Positions 5,195 to 14,413 of a DNA stretch of 15,124 bases are shown here, piece by piece. The stretch is from a virus. The DNA lies in UHGV virus genome UHGV-0073333. One strand, written 5' to 3'. The notes under the pieces were generated by a model. That model worked only from the letters and a program-made list of their open reading frames with translations. It was not told the origin of the DNA and made no database searches. The first letter of the stretch is position 1. The number at the start of each line of letters is the position of its first letter. The translations under genes and the position numbers were made by a program.

Positions 5195-5310
5195 GGTGTT
5201 GGTTCAGTTGGTTCAGTTGGTTCAATTTGTAAAGAGTATTGTTTTATAAGGATTTTATTCTTTTTATTGAACCAACACTGAACCAACAACACGGTATTTT
5301 GAACCAACAC
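5195..5310. repeat. Iteron cluster A: 3 tandem GTTGGTTCA 9-mers, AT-rich spacer, 3 inverted TGAACCAAC 9-mers; ori/crr-like
   Basis: Tandem 9-mers at 5198-5224; inverted copies at 5268-5276, 5279-5287, 5300-5308; 5195-5236 is a perfect 42-bp inverted copy of 13753-13794. Confidence 0.75.
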
Positions 5311-5934: not shown

Positions 5935-6396
5935 ATGGAACTAAAATTTATTGATAACCCTGTGCGATTACAGGCCTTTCTTAACGAGCCAGGCAATACC
6001 GAAAATATTGTTGAGCCGGGGCACACGTACTACATCAAGCCTGATGCGGTATATCTCGGCATCTACGAAGGATTAGTGCTGGCTGGCGTTCATGAAGTGC
6101 GTAACTTCTGGCATAGCGTTGTTGAATGCCATGCGGTGTACGACCCCGGATTCCGTGGTGAATATGCACTGCAAGGGCATCGATTATTCTGCAAATGGCT
6201 TCTCGAAAACTCACCATTCCTTAACAGCATTACCATGGTTCCTGACACCACCAAATACGGACGGGCAATTATCCGTTTGCTTGGCGCTACCCGTGTTGGT
6301 CACCTTGATGATGCTTATATCAGATGTGGTAAACCCGTCGGCGTAACGCTTTATCAGTTAACTCGGCAACAATATAAGGAATTCAGCGAATGTTAA
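5935..6396 (+). CDS. Hypothetical protein (153 aa); occupies the gp14 position of a P22-type ejection cassette
   Basis: ORF track; starts 16 nt after the upstream stop; its stop overlaps the next start (ATGTTAA). Confidence 0.7.
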   Translation: MELKFIDNPVRLQAFLNEPGNTENIVEPGHTYYIKPDAVYLGIYEGLVLAGVHEVRNFWHSVVECHAVYDPGFRGEYALQGHRLFCKWLLENSPFLNSITMVPDTTKYGRAIIRLLGATRVGHLDDAYIRCGKPVGVTLYQLTRQQYKEFSEC

Positions 6397-7043
6397 TTAC
6401 CCACATAGCTCATAAACATCTCAATCGTGCCGTATACGAAAAAGGCGGTGATGGTGGTGCCTCTAAAGCTCAGGCGAAGGCCCAGCAGCAGGCAATTGAT
6501 TTGCAGCGCGAGCAGTGGAATACGGTGATGAATAATCTCAAGCCGTATGCAGAAGTCGGATTGCCTGCTTTACAACAACTACAAGGACTGATGACTCTGG
6601 AAGGGCAGAATAAAGCCGCGAATGATTTCTTTGGTTCTGGTTTATATAAAACACAGGCAGATCAGGCCCGTTATCAGAACCTTGTCTCAGCAGAAGCTAC
6701 CGGGGGGCTTGGCTCAACAGCTACCAGTAACCAGTTATCTTCCATTGCGCCCATGCTTTATAACAATTGGCTTAGTGGGCAAATGCAAAATTATGGAAAC
6801 CTGCTAAATGTCGGGATGAATGCGGCATCAGGGCAGGCAACAGCAGGGCAACTCTTGCAGGGGCTTGGCGCTATTCGTGCAGGTCAGGCGCAGCAGCCAT
6901 CCAGTCTTGCGCGTGGTATTGGTGGGGCGGCATCAGGCGCTTTAGCGGGTGCGCAACTTGGTTCCGTTGTTCCGGGTATAGGTAATGTCGCCGGGGCTAT
7001 TGGTGGTGGGCTTATTGGTCTTGTTGGGGGGCTTGGATTCTAA
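6390..7043 (+). CDS. Gly/Gln-rich protein (217 aa) with a glycine-zipper hydrophobic C-terminus; ejection-protein-like (gp7-like by position and size)
   Basis: ORF track; C-terminal GGLIGLVGGLGF; TAATG overlap with the next gene. Confidence 0.7.
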   Translation: MLITHIAHKHLNRAVYEKGGDGGASKAQAKAQQQAIDLQREQWNTVMNNLKPYAEVGLPALQQLQGLMTLEGQNKAANDFFGSGLYKTQADQARYQNLVSAEATGGLGSTATSNQLSSIAPMLYNNWLSGQMQNYGNLLNVGMNAASGQATAGQLLQGLGAIRAGQAQQPSSLARGIGGAASGALAGAQLGSVVPGIGNVAGAIGGGLIGLVGGLGF

Positions 7044-8464
7044 TGGCGACATGGCAACTTGGCGGGCTGCCTAGCATGGCACCGCAAAATGATAATGCTC
7101 CTCGTTCTTCCGTTCCTCAGCCTGTGCAGTATCAGCAGCAGCCAAACGTAGGTTTAATGGCGCTACAGGGGCTAAGAGGCGTTGCTGAGATTAATCAGCA
7201 GGCACGTCAACAACAGCGTAAAGCAGAGTTTCAGAAAGCATATGCCGGGGCTTTTGAGTCTGGAGACAGAAACAAAATGCGCAGTCTTATTTCTGAGTAT
7301 CCAGAAGAATTTGAAAGCGTTCAGAAAGGGATGGGCTTTATTGATGACGACCAGAGAAATTCTATTGGTCATCTTGCGACTAGTGCTCAAATCGCATCTT
7401 CGCTCGGAACTGGGGCATTTGGAAAATTCATAGCAGATAACGAAGATGAAATGCGTCGCTTGGGAATTTCTCCTGAGTCTGTTGCCGAAATGCATGTTAA
7501 TGATCCACAGGGATTCCAGCGGCTTGCTGGTAGTATGGCACTGTTTTCTCTCGGTCATGAGAAGTATTTCGATATCAAAGATCAAATGGAAGGTCGGGAT
7601 ATTGAGCGTGGCAAGTTGGCAGAAACAATCCGCAGCAATCAGGCTGGCGAAGCACTTCAGGCGAGAGGGCAGGATATTAGCCGAGCAAATGCGTTAACGT
7701 CAGCATATGCACCAACAGCAGCAATGCAGAATTACAATCAGTACGCTCAAATGTTAAAGGCGGATCCAGAGGGGGCGGCGGCATTTGCGGCAGCGGCTGG
7801 AATTAATACAAACGCCAAAAAATTAATGAGTGTTAGAGAAAACGATGATGGCACTGTCACAAAATACTACACAGACGGAAGTGAAGAGCAGGGAAAACTA
7901 AACCAGCCAATATCTGGAGATGGGTTTCGTCCAATAGCTTTGCCAACAGCCCAAAAGATCATGGAAAAGTCGCCAGAAGGGGCTAAAAAAGCTGCTGGAT
8001 TTGCATACAGGGTTAGGGATGCTCTTGATTCAATAGATACACTGAAAGACCAGCTTAGCCCACAGCGAGTGGCGATCATTAATAATGCTTTGGGTAATGG
8101 GACGCTGGCTAACTTAACGCTCAGCCCAATAGAGCAGCAATACGTTGTTAATGCTAATGACGCAATAATGGCAATACTCCGTCAGGAAACAGGGGCATCT
8201 ATCCTACCAGCTGAAATGTCCAAATATTATCAAATGTATTTCCCTCAGCCTGGTGATTCCACAAAAACCATTGATACCAAGCGCCGGAAGATGGAAAACC
8301 AGTTCAATTCGCTGAAAGCTGCTTCTGGTCGAGCTTATGATGCTTTGCGGGTTATTTCAGCAGTTGACAGAGGAACTTCTTCTTCGTCGCAGACATTGCC
8401 GCAATCTGAGCAGGTATCACAGCCAGCAGCCAGCAGTAATTTTTCTTCACTATGGGGTGATTAA
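7043..8464 (+). CDS. Low-complexity Gln/Ala-rich protein (473 aa); ejection/internal virion protein-like (gp20-like by position and size)
   Basis: ORF track; translationally coupled on both sides; no enzymatic motifs seen. Confidence 0.78.
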   Translation: MATWQLGGLPSMAPQNDNAPRSSVPQPVQYQQQPNVGLMALQGLRGVAEINQQARQQQRKAEFQKAYAGAFESGDRNKMRSLISEYPEEFESVQKGMGFIDDDQRNSIGHLATSAQIASSLGTGAFGKFIADNEDEMRRLGISPESVAEMHVNDPQGFQRLAGSMALFSLGHEKYFDIKDQMEGRDIERGKLAETIRSNQAGEALQARGQDISRANALTSAYAPTAAMQNYNQYAQMLKADPEGAAAFAAAAGINTNAKKLMSVRENDDGTVTKYYTDGSEEQGKLNQPISGDGFRPIALPTAQKIMEKSPEGAKKAAGFAYRVRDALDSIDTLKDQLSPQRVAIINNALGNGTLANLTLSPIEQQYVVNANDAIMAILRQETGASILPAEMSKYYQMYFPQPGDSTKTIDTKRRKMENQFNSLKAASGRAYDALRVISAVDRGTSSSSQTLPQSEQVSQPAASSNFSSLWGD

Positions 8465-10143
8465 TGGCTAAAGCATGGAAAGATGTTATCGCTTCTCCAC
8501 AGTATCAGGCGTTAGCACCAGAACAAAAAGCGCAGGCTCAAGAGCAATACTTCAATGAAGTCGTGGCCCCGCAAGCCGGAGAAAGTGTAGAGCAGGCTAA
8601 GCAGGCTTTTTATGCTGCCTATCCACTACCATCAACGAATGAAATAGACCGATCCCAATCAGCAACTCAAAATATTCAACATACATCATCTGATAATTCT
8701 CTTGCGTCAGGGTATGCAAAGTTAGCTACTCAGCAAAGAGAGGGGCTTGAGCGTTCAGCAGAACAGGGAGCCAGTCTTGGGGCTGCGATGCGCGATGCTA
8801 TAACAGGCGAAAGCCGAATGACTCCAGAGATGGAGAGACTGCAAAATGTCGCCTCTGCCCCAGAATTGAACTCACTAAGCATGGATGCCCTAAAGGCTGG
8901 ATGGTCTCAACTTTTCGGCTCTGACGCGTCTCAGGAAAAGATTCTTCAGGGAATGGGGGCGACATTAAGGCAGGATGAGAAGGGGAATACTATCGTTTCT
9001 CTGCCATCAGGTGATTATGCCCTGAACAAGCCGGGTTTATCACCGCAAGACCTGACTTCGTTTCTTGCTAATGCGTTGGCGTTTACACCAGCGGGCAGGG
9101 CTGGAACGGTGCTTGGTGCCATAGGAAAATCAGCAGCTACAGATTTAGCACTACAGGGAGCCACCAGCCTTGCTGGTGGAGAAGATATTGATCCGTTACA
9201 AACGGTAATTTCTGCTGGCATTGGTGGTATTGGTAAGGGGCTGGAAAATACAGCGAGTGCGGTTTCGAGGGCTGTTCGTGGTGATATGTCGCCTGAAGCA
9301 AAGGCTGCTGTCGACTTTGCATCGGAAAGAAATCTGCCGTTAATGACCAGTGACATGCTGAAAGATAAAACCTTTATGCAGAGTCAGGCTCAGACATTAG
9401 GCGAAAGAGTTCCTTTTTTTGGAACCGGTAAGAATCGGCTGAATCAACAACAAGCACGAGAAAATTTAGTCAGAACATTTAGCGATGGTCTGGGTGGCAT
9501 TTCTGATAAACAGCTTTATGAATCTGCGACTAAAGGGCAACAAAAATTCATTGAGGCAGCAGGAAAGCGATATAACCGCATAATTGACGCTATGGGGGAT
9601 ACCCCTGTCGATCTCTCAAACACGGTAAAAGCTATCGACAATCAGATTGCCGTGTTAAGCCGCCCGGGCAAATCTCAGGATAGAGCCGCGGTAAAAGTCT
9701 TGCAGCAATTTAAAGACGATATCACCAGCGGACCAAATGACCTGCGTCTGGCGAGGGAAAACAGAACCGATCTTCGAAAGCGATTTATGGCGTCATCTGA
9801 CACTGTTGATAAAGATACGCTCCAGAAAGCCAGCGATATTATCTACAAGGCATATACGGCGGATATGAAAAAAGCCGTAGCCAAAAATCTTGGAGCAGAC
9901 GAAGCCATTAATATGGCAAGGGTTGATCGCTCATGGTCTAAATTCAATGACATGATGGGAAGAACGCGCGTTCAAAAGGCAATAGCCAGCGGCAAGGCCA
10001 CGCCTGAGGATGTAACAAAACTCGTTTTTAGCCAAAGCCCATCAGAACGTTCTCAGCTTTACAGGCTTCTGGGTGACAATGGTAGGGAAAAAGCACCAGC
10101 AGCCATAGCTGCTGCGTTAGGCAAAACGCACGAGCGGCCATAG
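8464..10143 (+). CDS. Low-complexity Ala/Gln-rich protein (559 aa); ejection/internal virion protein-like (gp16-like by position)
   Basis: ORF track; ATG 8464 overlaps upstream stop (TAATG), GGGGTG Shine-Dalgarno-like sequence at 8451-8456. Confidence 0.78.
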   Translation: MAKAWKDVIASPQYQALAPEQKAQAQEQYFNEVVAPQAGESVEQAKQAFYAAYPLPSTNEIDRSQSATQNIQHTSSDNSLASGYAKLATQQREGLERSAEQGASLGAAMRDAITGESRMTPEMERLQNVASAPELNSLSMDALKAGWSQLFGSDASQEKILQGMGATLRQDEKGNTIVSLPSGDYALNKPGLSPQDLTSFLANALAFTPAGRAGTVLGAIGKSAATDLALQGATSLAGGEDIDPLQTVISAGIGGIGKGLENTASAVSRAVRGDMSPEAKAAVDFASERNLPLMTSDMLKDKTFMQSQAQTLGERVPFFGTGKNRLNQQQARENLVRTFSDGLGGISDKQLYESATKGQQKFIEAAGKRYNRIIDAMGDTPVDLSNTVKAIDNQIAVLSRPGKSQDRAAVKVLQQFKDDITSGPNDLRLARENRTDLRKRFMASSDTVDKDTLQKASDIIYKAYTADMKKAVAKNLGADEAINMARVDRSWSKFNDMMGRTRVQKAIASGKATPEDVTKLVFSQSPSERSQLYRLLGDNGREKAPAAIAAALGKTHERP

Positions 10144-10604
10144 TTCAGAATGCTGTAGATAAGGCGACTGATCCGTCTGGAAATATCAGTGTTGAGAAGT
10201 TTATTAATGCGTTACACCGGAACAGGAAGCAATCAGCAACTTTCTTTAAAGGCGTACATGGAAAGGAACTGGACGGCGTTATTAAATACCTCAACGATAC
10301 AAGACACGCGGCAAAAGCGAACGTTCAAAACTTAAATGGTCAGCAGCTTTATGGATTGTTAGTTGGTGGTGGCATCATAAACGCAGCAGTATTAGCGGGG
10401 ATGCTAAAAACGGCTGCGTTTGTTGTTCCTGCTGCTGGTGCCGTAGGCGGAGCAGCGAAGGCATACGAAAGCCCTGTTATACGAAATGCCTTGTTACGTC
10501 TGGCAAATACGCCAAAAGGTAGCACAGCATATGACAGAGCGATCAGTACGGTCACACAATCGCTCACCAGAGTCGCACAGGCATCACAAAAAGAAGCTCA
10601 ATAA
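10086..10604 (+). other. Open frame of 172 codons with no canonical start, overlapping the 3' end of the 559-aa gene; probable frameshifted C-terminal extension or frameshift-disrupted gene
   Basis: Stop-free from 10086 to TAA 10602-10604; first ATG/GTG/TTG only at 10356; operon terminator sits after 10604, not after 10143; encodes a Gly/Ala-rich hydrophobic segment. Confidence 0.45.
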
Positions 10605-10606
10605 CT

Positions 10607-10631
10607 GGTTAGCCACGGATGGCTAATTTTT
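10607..10631 (+). terminator. Rho-independent terminator of the plus-strand cargo operon
   Basis: Stem TTAGCCA (10609-10615) / TGGCTAA (10620-10626), loop CGGA, then TTTTT at 10627-10631. Confidence 0.55.
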
Positions 10632-11042
10632 GTTCTTTGCTCTCATCCACAGGTAAAGAAGGGCAAGAACAAGACAAAAAACAGAGAATAGATAACCTAC
10701 CTCATATGATGCGCCAAAAAAATTAGCTATTGATACGGGCAAAAAAGCTGAAGCGATCAAAATTGAAAGGCAAAAAATAAGACCAGTAATATAGTTTATT
10801 AAATTCTTAAATGAGAAACGTTTTGCTTGATTTATGGTCTTAGCGAACGATCGCTTAACGACGGATAAAAGCAAATAGATGGCGACAGTTGCTAATGCCC
10901 CTTTCCACCAGTCTGGATATAGTTTTGCGACAATCAGACCAAGGAAAACCATGATGACAGCCTGAGCATTCACACCAACCCTCCCTTTAGCGTTGTTTAG
11001 ATTGGCAATCATCATATATCCAAGACATGGCATTTGGTACAT
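10623..11042 (-). CDS. Small inner-membrane protein (about 139 aa, about 4 hydrophobic helices); start uncertain
   Basis: ORF track 10623..11210 begins at a TTG; first ATG is at 11042; strongly hydrophobic; AT-rich; no clear Shine-Dalgarno sequence. Confidence 0.5.
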   Translation of the reverse strand: MYQMPCLGYMMIANLNNAKGRVGVNAQAVIMVFLGLIVAKLYPDWWKGALATVAIYLLLSVVKRSFAKTINQAKRFSFKNLINYITGLIFCLSILIASAFLPVSIANFFGASYEVGYLFSVFCLVLALLYLWMRAKNKN

Positions 11043-11165
11043 AGCTTGGGTCGGGATTTCAAATCCGCCCCCGTTGATGGGGTCGTTACAGTACGCGCAT
11101 ATCCGCTTTATGTGAAACAGGAAGATTTTTCTGATATCACTGCCACAGCAAAACACCAATTTCGA

Positions 11166-11181
11166 GACAAGTACGCGCGCG
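11166..11181. repeat. 16-bp direct repeat GACAAGTACGCGCGCG, copy 1
   Basis: Exact copy at 11452-11467; partial third copy ACAGTACGCGCA at 11088-11099. Confidence 0.6.
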
Positions 11182-11451
11182 AGGGGTATCAGTTGCAAAA
11201 AATTTTGCAACTACGTCCGACCAATACACACACGATGGCGGGGGATACCATAAAACTGTTCTCTACATGAGACAGAGTGGTGGTGATGTGTTGATTATCG
11301 GCCTATATGCGCACAGGACGCGCTATGACAATGTTTTATGCGGGTACACCAATCACATGTATCTGGTGTGATAAATCGCGTTACATGACCTTTCATGTTG
11401 TGCTGGTGGTTATCACGACGTTCTGAATCTGGCTTTTGTCTGATATTTTGC

Positions 11452-11467
11452 GACAAGTACGCGCGCG
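11452..11467. repeat. 16-bp direct repeat GACAAGTACGCGCGCG, copy 2
   Basis: Exact match to 11166-11181, 286 bp apart, in a non-coding region. Confidence 0.6.
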
Positions 11468-11804
11468 TAACATCGAAATTATCGGATGGCGTATGTTGCT
11501 GGCAAGATAAAGTCGGCGTAATACAAAGGCGTTACTTGATAGCAGCAAGATTACAACAATGGTTGTTGAATTTGAGCGATGTAAGGAATTGATTTAGGGA
11601 GGCGCTGATGGCTAAAAAGTTCCACTACCAGCGGATGAATGCGCCAGCGATGGCCGTTTGGTAGTAAAAGAGGAGCCATTCCTCAATCAGTTGAATACAT
11701 TATGCCAACTAAATGGGTGGGGGCACTGTGTGGGTATTCAGCGGTGACGGTATTTTTTAAGCCAAGGACTATCCGTAGCAGGGGGACTCATTTTGAAATA
11801 TTTA

Positions 11805-12242
11805 TCATATGTAACTTATTATTTTAGATAAAGATTTCCAGTTAAAGAAAAAAGTTATCATTGATATAATCAAATATGCCCCTGCGAGTAGCAGGGCATA
11901 ATAATCCAGAGGCAGATTGCTGACAACAGGGGCAAACATCGAGATCATTGCTAATAGGCAGGCTGTGATCAGCGTAGTTCCTGTATCAAAAAGCCCCTCA
12001 ATAATGCCTTTTAGTACTCCGTTACTTTTTAGAGCGCCTACAATTCCCTTTGAACTATCAAAGCTACTTAGCATGGTGACTGATGCCAAAACAAAACCAA
12101 AGAGAACTCCAGAAATAGTTGAAAGAGCACCAGCAGCCGAAATGACAGCATTGTGATCTAGGTCGTGTAAAAAATGGGCACCAGCAATAGCCATAGCTAG
12201 AGCAAACAATGACTTGGCAGCAAACAATTTCCGAGAACTCAT
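11805..12242 (-). CDS. Small membrane protein (145 aa, 3-4 hydrophobic helices); second gene of the two-gene cargo operon
   Basis: ORF track; ATG with AGGA 7 nt upstream, 12 nt after the stop of the 361-aa gene; AT-rich. Confidence 0.75.
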   Translation of the reverse strand: MSSRKLFAAKSLFALAMAIAGAHFLHDLDHNAVISAAGALSTISGVLFGFVLASVTMLSSFDSSKGIVGALKSNGVLKGIIEGLFDTGTTLITACLLAMISMFAPVVSNLPLDYYALLLAGAYLIISMITFFFNWKSLSKIISYI

Positions 12243-12254
12243 AATGTATTCCTG

Positions 12255-13340
12255 TTACGTTTGACTAACCAAATAGTACTGGGTTAGATACCTAAGGTTG
12301 TCATTCTTTGCTTGTAGCATAGCATTTTTAACGTCAGTATCGGTCGGATACCCATCTGCTTGGATAGGCACCATCTTCTTTACCGTAAGAACTTCGTCTA
12401 CAAGACTTTTCTTCTTTTTATCGCCCTGAGCAACAACATTTGCTTTCTCAAAAGTTAAACGACCATCACCACCAGGGAACTTTTCTAGCATCTCCTTAAG
12501 GCTTTTTTTAACGTCATCCTCAAGCCATCCCTTTGCTTTTCTTTTTAATGGAGAATGTCCGCGTAACGAAATAGTCAGGTGGCTTGAACTGGTGCCTCTG
12601 ATCATCTCAATCATCTGATTCGCGAACATTCCATCGAGTTGATACTGTGCGGCATTGAAGTTTCTTGGGATGGCCACAGAAATCTCGCAGCTTCTTAGAT
12701 TGGATCCAGTTTCGAGTAGTTCTTTGATGCTTTCTTCTTTCCAAATGGCTTCAAAAGAAACAGGGACTCCGCGATCACTGGAGTTGAAAAGAAGGAAGGC
12801 TAAGTCACTATGGCGTGGACCTAAATGATTTAAAGACAATACTAGAATGTCTGTCTGAGGATAATAAATAAAGTATGTACGTTCTGAAAGAGTCTTTGCC
12901 CCGGCTAGAGGGATTTTCTCTTCCACCCACTCTTTATCTGTAATATATGCCAGTGTTGCGCTTTTTCTTCTTCGAGACATGAATCCGAAGTAGGAGCCAT
13001 CCTCGGGTGAGATGTCTAGAAAATGAATTTTAAGTTCTCTTTCACCAAAGTCTGCATAGTGGGTCATCTTGAAGTCTTTAGAACACCGATCATACAGATT
13101 TTTAAAGGCCTCTGCGGTTAACCCCTTGTTACTAGTGCGAATATTCTCAGAGCTTGTGTAAAAGCCCACCCTTACAGATTTCAAACTTTGATCTTTTGGT
13201 GCCACAGTCATTTGAGCTCCATTGTACTCTGCGATAGTTTTTGCACACCTTGAAATCAAAATCTCCATGTCAGTCACGAGAAAATAACTATGGATGAAAC
13301 CCATCAAAGGCATTGAATACAGGTGGCTTTTGAGAATCAT
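12255..13340 (-). CDS. Hypothetical soluble protein (361 aa), no recognisable catalytic motif; first gene of the two-gene cargo operon
   Basis: ORF track; about 40% GC by eye and AGA/AGG arginine codons suggest horizontal acquisition. Confidence 0.8.
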   Translation of the reverse strand: MILKSHLYSMPLMGFIHSYFLVTDMEILISRCAKTIAEYNGAQMTVAPKDQSLKSVRVGFYTSSENIRTSNKGLTAEAFKNLYDRCSKDFKMTHYADFGERELKIHFLDISPEDGSYFGFMSRRRKSATLAYITDKEWVEEKIPLAGAKTLSERTYFIYYPQTDILVLSLNHLGPRHSDLAFLLFNSSDRGVPVSFEAIWKEESIKELLETGSNLRSCEISVAIPRNFNAAQYQLDGMFANQMIEMIRGTSSSHLTISLRGHSPLKRKAKGWLEDDVKKSLKEMLEKFPGGDGRLTFEKANVVAQGDKKKKSLVDEVLTVKKMVPIQADGYPTDTDVKNAMLQAKNDNLRYLTQYYLVSQT

Positions 13341-13689
13341 CCTAACCTGGTGACGGTGGTTCGCATATCCTGATGGATGATCAGTGATTAATCAATGCGC
13401 CAAGCAGATGTGTCTATGTGTTTGTTAATCATTGCATGACAGTAGATCGACATGGGAGATCACGTTATATAGTTGAATTGTTAGGATATCCATGCACCGA
13501 TCAACTGACTAGGCTGATGTGCTTTTTAGCAGGTGCCATATAGTAGTTAGGCGGTTCTGTGAAATGATTACTGTTCCAGCATAACTGCGGCATAAAGCGG
13601 TGCTATATAAGCTATTTGCTGGCGGATTTAGTCTTCACCGTTCATATATGTAGTGACTATTTGACAGAGTGTTAGTTCACGGACACTTT

Positions 13690-13795
13690 TTGTTGGTTCA
13701 AAATGAGTTGATGTTGGTTCAATATTTTAGAAAAAACACAATAAAAACAACGCTCTTTACAAATTGAACCAACTGAACCAACTGAACCAACACCT
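13690..13795. repeat. Iteron cluster B (inverted copy of cluster A); ori/crr-like
   Basis: GTTGGTTCA at 13692-13700 and 13713-13721; three tandem TGAACCAAC at 13765-13791; 13753-13794 is the exact reverse complement of 5195-5236. Confidence 0.75.
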
Positions 13796-13827
13796 TTTTG
13801 CTTATCTATATAATCTGAGAGGCAGAA

Positions 13828-14170: not shown

Positions 14171-14413
14171 AATGGTTTTAGGTACATTCCTCAAATTGAG
14201 GTTTCCGAAAATATCAGCGGGTTAGCGATTAATCTGGCGAGTAATTAAACTGCGAAAATTTCGTAGGGGGTTACGAAAATTTCGTAGGTCTACTCATGGT
14301 TTAGGCTTACTTTCCCGACATCCCCCAATGGGGGGGTCGAAATAATCAATGGGTTAGGCTTACCTCCCCCCATTTCCTGCATTGCAGGTTTTCGAAAGAA
14401 TCAATGGGTTAGG
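14171..14413. repeat. Four direct copies of ATGG(G)TT(T)AGG in the integrase-upstream region; candidate arm-type or operator sites
   Basis: Copies at 14171-14185, 14295-14310, 14344-14358, 14399-14413; the last two are an identical 15-mer AATCAATGGGTTAGG 55 bp apart. Confidence 0.5.
14253..14288. promoter_or_regulatory. Tandem palindromic operator-like sites CGAAAATTTCGTAGG x2, 21-bp period
   Basis: Exact 15-mers at 14253-14267 and 14274-14288; same core as the palindrome at 5418-5434. Confidence 0.4.

Follow-up and report, generated by a model that had tools for sequence, protein, structure and literature searches.

A candidate RexAB-type phage-exclusion pair with a DUF6731-superfamily protein in a thrW-linked island of Escherichia coli

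How the Rex proteins of phage lambda exclude other phages is a 70-year-old open problem. Comparable two-gene prophage defences, in which a cytosolic protein is paired with a protein of four transmembrane (TM) segments, are described from actinophages (Sbash gp30/gp31, CarolAnn gp44/gp43, Butters gp30/gp31). In Kiwa, a four-TM protein is combined with a DNA-binding protein of about 315 amino acids (aa) that forms a dimer, and the system defends by stalling phage replication. Here we analyse a two-gene cassette of the virus genome UHGV-0073333, a stretch of 15,124 nucleotides (nt; hereafter the window) that matches the thrW-linked island of Escherichia coli ABU 83972 at 100% identity. An open reading frame (ORF) read over 361 codons (12255..13340) is followed after 12 nt by a second one (11805..12242), both on the minus strand.

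A previous inspection of the letters alone (the sequence-only reading) had pointed out this operon at the same coordinates, called it unassignable and proposed an undescribed defence or abortive-infection module, with RexA/RexB among its analogues. Its defence reading and its Rex analogy are upheld; the two epithets are not, the pair being of the known RexAB type and the large protein falling by sequence in the DUF6731 superfamily. Our preferred reading, held with moderate confidence and by analogy, sees in the cassette a two-component module for phage exclusion (abortive infection), a divergent one of the RexAB type, acting by the mechanism proposed below.

The two proteins beside RexA and RexB

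Neither cassette protein matched a model in Pfam, PADLOC or NCBIfam scans. A PHROGs scan returned 7651 and 8552 only, both of unknown function, and we put a weak TubZ-like_C match in the library scans (E 0.02) down to chance. Among 1.84 billion representatives, a profile search yielded 250 relatives of the large protein. Homologues at 45-49% identity carry Pfam DUF6731 (PF20505), relatives in E. coli prophages are labelled 'DUF6731 family protein' in RefSeq, and the Pfam model is matched by 12 of 34 close homologues and by 72 of 81 tested distant profile matches. The large protein itself falls below detection with this model, yet close and distant homologues match it; as judged from these alignments it is a divergent branch of the uncharacterised DUF6731 superfamily.

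We modelled the large protein with AlphaFold2 (predicted local distance difference test, pLDDT, 79) and compared the model to solved structures by Foldseek. The top match in the PDB is lambda RexA (8twq_B of entry 8TWQ; E 3.5e-7, probability 1.0), with E. coli RdgC next. The model has the RexA fold: a globular domain that is split, plus a dimerisation domain, in an RdgC-like arrangement.

Pairwise BLASTP between the large protein and lambda RexA aligns 128 colinear residues at 27% identity (E 0.005). In profile-profile comparison with the RexA family, a query alignment of 34 sequences gave P 0.02-0.05, one of 81 sequences P 0.002-0.006 and one of 167 sequences P 4e-7 to 1.5e-6; the deepest reached 90-93% probability over 253-260 columns, nearly the full length of both proteins. 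The register is constant across depths while the signal rises with them, and the controls (reversed, column-shuffled and cross-paired) gave E of at least 0.16.

The small protein (145 aa) has four hydrophobic segments, at residues 6-24, 40-58, 89-107 and 112-130; those of lambda RexB (144 aa) lie at 8-26, 48-66, 84-102 and 109-127. Its AlphaFold2 model likewise consists of four long helices, which settles an earlier count of three to four. The positive-inside pattern predicts a cytoplasmic location for both termini and for the central loop 59-88, and conservation within the protein is highest in this TM2-TM3 loop, whose conserved residues include D62, K65, N74 and G79. By analogy it would correspond to the loop of Sbash gp31, a protein inactivated by mutation of its central cytoplasmic loop (PMC6426596).

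A shallow profile of the small protein matched the RexB family weakly (P 8e-4), and we therefore collected the neighbours of distant DUF6731 genes: 1378 ORFs in 75 loci from metagenomes and viral contigs. A hidden Markov model (HMM) of the small protein finds a homologous ORF directly 3' of the DUF6731 gene in 57 of these 75 loci. An HMM built from lambda-RexB homologues only matches 25 of the 1378 ORFs (E 1.8e-6 to 7e-3); combined, the two HMMs match 59 ORFs, all but two of them (57/59) directly 3' of the DUF6731 gene. Over TM2, loop and TM3, the deep profile of the small protein can be aligned with the RexB family (85.5%, E 5.7e-6), and its controls are clean. Two distant partners are matched by the PADLOC RexB model (E 2e-4). 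Below threshold, Pfam RexB ranks first for 5 of 10 distant partners and is named for a sixth. The resemblance to Rex is probably one of homology in both components, not of architecture alone.

RexB-like partners in two loci, L142 (1031-1471) and L150 (4797-5276), also match the PADLOC candidate PDC-M67B (E 9e-5 and 0.02, respectively); PDC-M67 may be another Rex-type candidate system.

The pair as a unit and its proposed action

Both genes are adjacent and in the same order in 93 of 93 close related loci, with a distance between them that ranges from -20 to +88 nt and is in most cases 3-21 nt. Lambdoid prophages account for 72 of these loci; there the pair stands beside the Q antiterminator gene, between Q and the lysis genes, and phage cdtI orf54/orf53 is one such version. 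The pair usually lies on the strand opposite to the flanking genes. Further carriers are the tail-gene cluster of a Cronobacter siphovirus, the end of a Salmonella prophage and a primase-type island of Klebsiella, where the pair adjoins a superinfection-immunity gene. In an integrated Vinavirales element of Vibrio cyclitrophicus (non-tailed, PM2/autolykivirus-like; L014, PQ189356.1 1389-2896), a pair of 351 aa and 150 aa directly follows the integrase gene, so the cassette crosses virus realms. On a metagenomic contig the pair adjoins TacAT, and a scan of genome contigs gave 3 loci only.

Of 5426 complete E. coli genomes, 42 carry the window allele, always at 99% identity or more, and two prophage lineages of the pair are found in 73 and 18. 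The pair is accessory in E. coli, not core, and its two genes are passed on together, in the cargo slots of mobile elements.

By analogy with lambda RexAB, Sbash gp30/gp31 and RexABpp of Pseudomonas putida, the large protein would be a dimeric, non-sequence-specific DNA-binding sensor of a phage-made intermediate, either DNA or protein-DNA. In response, it would switch on the membrane protein through the conserved cytoplasmic TM2-TM3 loop. The membrane protein would then oligomerise into a channel or pore, with collapse of the membrane potential and of ATP; the infected cell would be arrested and the infection aborted, to the protection of the island's host population.

A number of observations weigh against this reading. 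For the large protein, the curated RexA models (Pfam PF15969 and PADLOC PDLC02339), both of which match lambda RexA itself, give no match at E <= 1; shallower alignments leave the profile-profile signal weak; and a profile HMM run against PDB sequences does not retrieve RexA (its weak match to eIF2-alpha, E 0.0055 over 79 residues, was treated as chance). Since a plain profile search misses RexA, we regard the homology of the large protein as remote, resting mainly on the predicted structure and the deep profiles. For the small protein, neither Pfam PF15968 nor PADLOC PDLC02340 (RexB) gives a match, the AlphaFold2 model is of low confidence (pLDDT 69), and its comparison with viral structures gave no significant match (E of at least 0.026; a 165-aa Sbash protein, of the length of gp31, ranks second at E 0.05). 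Single-sequence comparison with Sbash gp30/gp31 gave no signal. Unlike lambda rex, the pair is neither beside a cI-type repressor gene nor under PRM, and a promoter scan 5' of the operon found no consensus sigma-70 site. No phenotype is on record for any family member, and the lambda mechanism is itself unsettled. Finally, the effector of phage Butters has been described as the cytosolic partner, not the membrane protein (PMC12894663).

Fold convergence or an alignment artefact would explain the failure of the curated models on both window proteins and a PDB sequence search that gave only the weak eIF2-alpha match; the pair would then be an addiction or toxin-like module, have some membrane function that has nothing to do with phages, or be cargo without activity. 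TM proteins can yield spurious profile matches, and the Foldseek TM-scores to RexA are low (0.35-0.39). Beside these points stand the constant register of the RexA alignments and their clean controls, and we consider such an explanation very unlikely.

Non-specific DNA binders of ring or clamp form (RdgC, RexA) have this fold, as would suit a Rex homologue that does not kill the cell: the membrane protein would only anchor or sense, and the RexA/RdgC-fold protein would be the effector that clamps incoming or replicating phage DNA and blocks its replication or recombination. Kiwa sets the precedent of a four-TM protein with a DNA-binding dimer that stalls phage replication, and the reported Butters effector is the RexA-like cytosolic protein, gp30 (PMC12894663). 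However, in lambda, Sbash and P. putida it is the membrane protein that acts as effector and arrests growth; the TM2-TM3 loop, the part of the small protein under the strongest conservation, is needed for defence in Sbash gp31; and KwaB, the soluble protein of Kiwa, is absent among the PDB matches of the large protein, although the presence of KwaB chains in the libraries was not checked. A purely clamping system seems to us unlikely.

Lambda RexB has also been given a role in shielding unstable proteins from proteolysis. The pair could mainly serve the element's own life cycle rather than exclude other phages, either by such protection or as a DNA-binding switch between lysogeny and lytic growth or of induction. 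Lambda RexA acts on the cI/cro bistable switch independently of RexB (PMC11077077), nearly all carriers are temperate elements, and the neighbours of the cassette are a regulator gene of the perC family and a cluster of iterons. Yet the carriers have unrelated regulatory circuits (lambdoid prophages, a siphoviral tail cluster, Vinavirales, primase-type islands) and the pair is on the opposite strand, so that autonomous cargo fits better than an integrated regulator. A switch would leave the strict retention of the membrane partner (93/93) unexplained, and the main finding in P. putida is defence, not an effect on the repressor promoter. We give this possibility little weight.

We therefore retain the RexAB-type exclusion module. 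In this light, Pfam DUF6731 acquires a probable role, by analogy, as the RexA-like sensor of a phage-exclusion pair, and its unnamed membrane partner is identified as RexB-like. The defence-annotation models of PADLOC 2.0, Pfam and NCBIfam miss these pairs. The therapeutic bacteriuria strain ABU 83972 is among the carriers of this allele of the window, and the cassette is of relevance to the prediction of host range in phage therapy. For the Rex problem, divergent members borne by E. coli offer comparative material, namely the conserved residues of the TM2-TM3 loop and the RexA-like clamp.

DUF6731 and its partner are widely spread, with about 250 clusters at 50% identity in tailed prophages, Vinavirales elements, satellite-like islands and environmental bacteria. 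That they form a large unstudied branch of a Rex superfamily, which senses or acts differently from lambda Rex, strikes us as doubtful. If true, such a branch might, for example, work as a DNA clamp tethered to the membrane, which stops phage replication while the cell survives and forms a bridge between defence of the Rex type and of the Kiwa type; a tractable member in E. coli could then clarify what triggers Rex-type systems.

Gene boundaries, island context and repeats

The features of the operon are collected in Table 1.

Table 1. Coordinates of the cassette and its signals in the window.
Feature	Position	Strand	Description or basis
rexA-like gene	12255..13211	minus	soluble 318-aa protein; divergent branch of the DUF6731 superfamily, predicted RexA/RdgC fold
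Upstream in-frame ORF extension, 43 codons, probably untranslated	13212..13340	minus	homologue lengths, RefSeq start, PHROG alignment
GGAG ribosome-binding site, 5 nt 5' of the ATG at 13211	13220-13217	minus	read from sequence
Intergenic spacer, 12 nt, with AGGA of the small gene (12253-12250)	12243..12254	minus	sequence
RexB-like small gene, 145 aa	11805..12242	minus	hydropathy, positive-inside count, AlphaFold2 helices, conserved loop, profile matches
Terminator-like hairpin and T-run, about 120 nt 3' of the small gene; candidate operon end	11660..11684	minus	consensus scan, weak

The large protein most likely has 318 aa rather than the 361 aa of the sequence-only reading. We take the longer frame as over-extended because RefSeq annotates the start at 13211, homologues, 309-318 aa long, account for only 84-88% of the query of 361 aa, the PHROG alignment begins at residue 46 (361-aa numbering), and a GGAG precedes the shorter start. 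In relatives with 91% identity, the ORF itself begins at the Met equivalent to 13211. The AGGA of the small gene, formerly placed inside the 3' end of the large gene, is downstream of that gene's TAA stop (12257-12255), and the short spacer that holds it suggests translational coupling or an operon. At the other end, the hairpin is only suggestive as an operon end, since the consensus scan turned up 2 such sites where 1.8 were expected. Across the whole window, Rfam and tRNA scans returned nothing.

The cassette is AT-rich, as had been estimated by eye: the guanine-plus-cytosine content of its two genes is 0.415 and 0.400, against 0.512 in the primase gene. The argument from arginine codons, also put forward for recent acquisition, is weak. 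Of the 17 Arg codons in the large gene, 9 are AGA or AGG, but the only one in the small gene is CGG, and the AGA/AGG share is similar in the neighbouring genes (gp16 0.47, perC 0.50), so this usage does not discriminate. The two-gene cassette is real, intact and mobile.

In the window, the pair sits between a truncated P22-type gp16 gene and perC. This slot (about 10150-13800) varies among E. coli strains: others hold there an 'Abi family protein' and a hypothetical gene, or an ImmA/IrrE metallopeptidase and hypothetical genes (L221 2289-5220; L222 2289-4902). Together with the moron slots that the pair occupies in prophages, these cassettes support the earlier suggestion of a hotspot in the accessory slot.

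Other parts of the island deserve mention. About 800 nt 3' of the pair and on the same strand lies a hypothetical gene (10623-11210, minus; RefSeq coding sequence 10623-11012) that accompanies the E. coli island version only and whose protein has no Pfam, PHROG or NCBIfam match. P22-type DNA-ejection genes occupy 5935-10143 (DUF2824/gp14-like, gp7, gp20, and gp16, truncated according to RefSeq), within what is otherwise an integrase/primase-type island at tRNA-Thr. Such a block points either to mosaicism with the remnant of a P22-like prophage or to a satellite that carries ejection proteins. In ABU 83972 (L001, NC_017631.1 19200-24753), an integrase fragment, the gene of a MarR-family regulator and that of the vacuolating autotransporter toxin vat come next after the island, and the Rex-like cassette is for this reason part of a composite thrW pathogenicity/prophage island.

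The cargo segment had been described as bracketed by iterons, and it is: the 9-mer TGAACCAAC occurs in 12 exact copies, in two similarly built clusters at 5198-5308 and 13692-13791. With one mismatch allowed there are 17 matches, against 3.7 expected. Each cluster consists of a set on one strand, an AT-rich spacer and a triplet on the other strand; one closely follows the TOPRIM-DUF927 primase gene, the other lies just 5' of perC, so that the entire cargo segment lies between them. The clusters look like paired origin-type iteron regions, which we take to be similar to the ori/crr pair of P4. Further repeats are found 3' of perC, at 14205-14413 and 14253-14288: three copies of the 22-mer TCGAAAnAATCAATGGGTTAGG and two exact copies of CGAAAATTTCGTAGG at a spacing of 21 nt.

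Comparison with known systems

Of the systems to which the sequence-only reading had likened the cassette, Pycsar, minimal CBASS and Kiwa receive no support. For CBASS and Pycsar, Pfam and PADLOC reveal no cyclase, be it of the CD-NTase or the class III type, and the predicted fold is RexA/RdgC-like. Kiwa shares a four-TM membrane protein and a soluble, DNA-binding partner of about 315 aa (KwaB); it differs in gene order, with the four-TM gene kwaA first, and in KwaB itself, which combines a Rossmann-like part with DUF4868. A relation between DUF6731 and the DUF4868 of KwaB was rejected, as the fold matches RexA/RdgC and neither Pfam nor PADLOC gave a match. E. coli RdgC (2OWL) is a housekeeping modulator of recombination with no membrane partner, and a much weaker structural match than RexA.

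RexABpp of the P. putida prophage P1 (PP_5643/PP_5644), whose genes we recovered from published primer sequence, differs in having a RexBpp of 188 aa and in lying near a cI-like repressor gene. The two proteins match the PADLOC candidate PDC-M53A/B (E 8e-157 and 3e-72); the window pair and its relatives do not match these models, and HMM comparison with RexABpp shows no relation. A sequence link between the two systems was consequently rejected.

The actinophage systems resemble the cassette in design: both are two-gene prophage-borne pairs of a cytosolic and a four-TM protein, and the central cytoplasmic loop that is functionally important in their membrane protein is conserved in the window's small protein. 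They differ in their hosts, which are Actinobacteria, in giving no sequence signal and in a structure match that is not significant. Pfam DUF6731, for its part, is a family without a described function: a literature search on it returned no papers in the library consulted, and the recent Rex literature contains no description of this family.

The closest known counterpart is lambda RexA/RexB (PF15969/PF15968; 8TWQ). The two systems differ in sequence, at about 15% identity with the window proteins missed by all curated RexA/RexB models; in the large protein of the window, which is about 40 residues longer; and in location, the window pair and its relatives occupying moron or cargo slots (Q-lysis, tail cluster, beside the integrase gene). 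They agree in a soluble gene followed by a membrane gene after a spacer of about 12-15 nt, in RexA as the best PDB match of the large protein with the RexA/RdgC fold, in a partner of nearly equal length with four TM segments at matching positions, in carriage by temperate elements, and in family profiles that align for both components. The cassette brings no new principle and is not a categorically new system; what is new is a divergent member of the known RexAB type.

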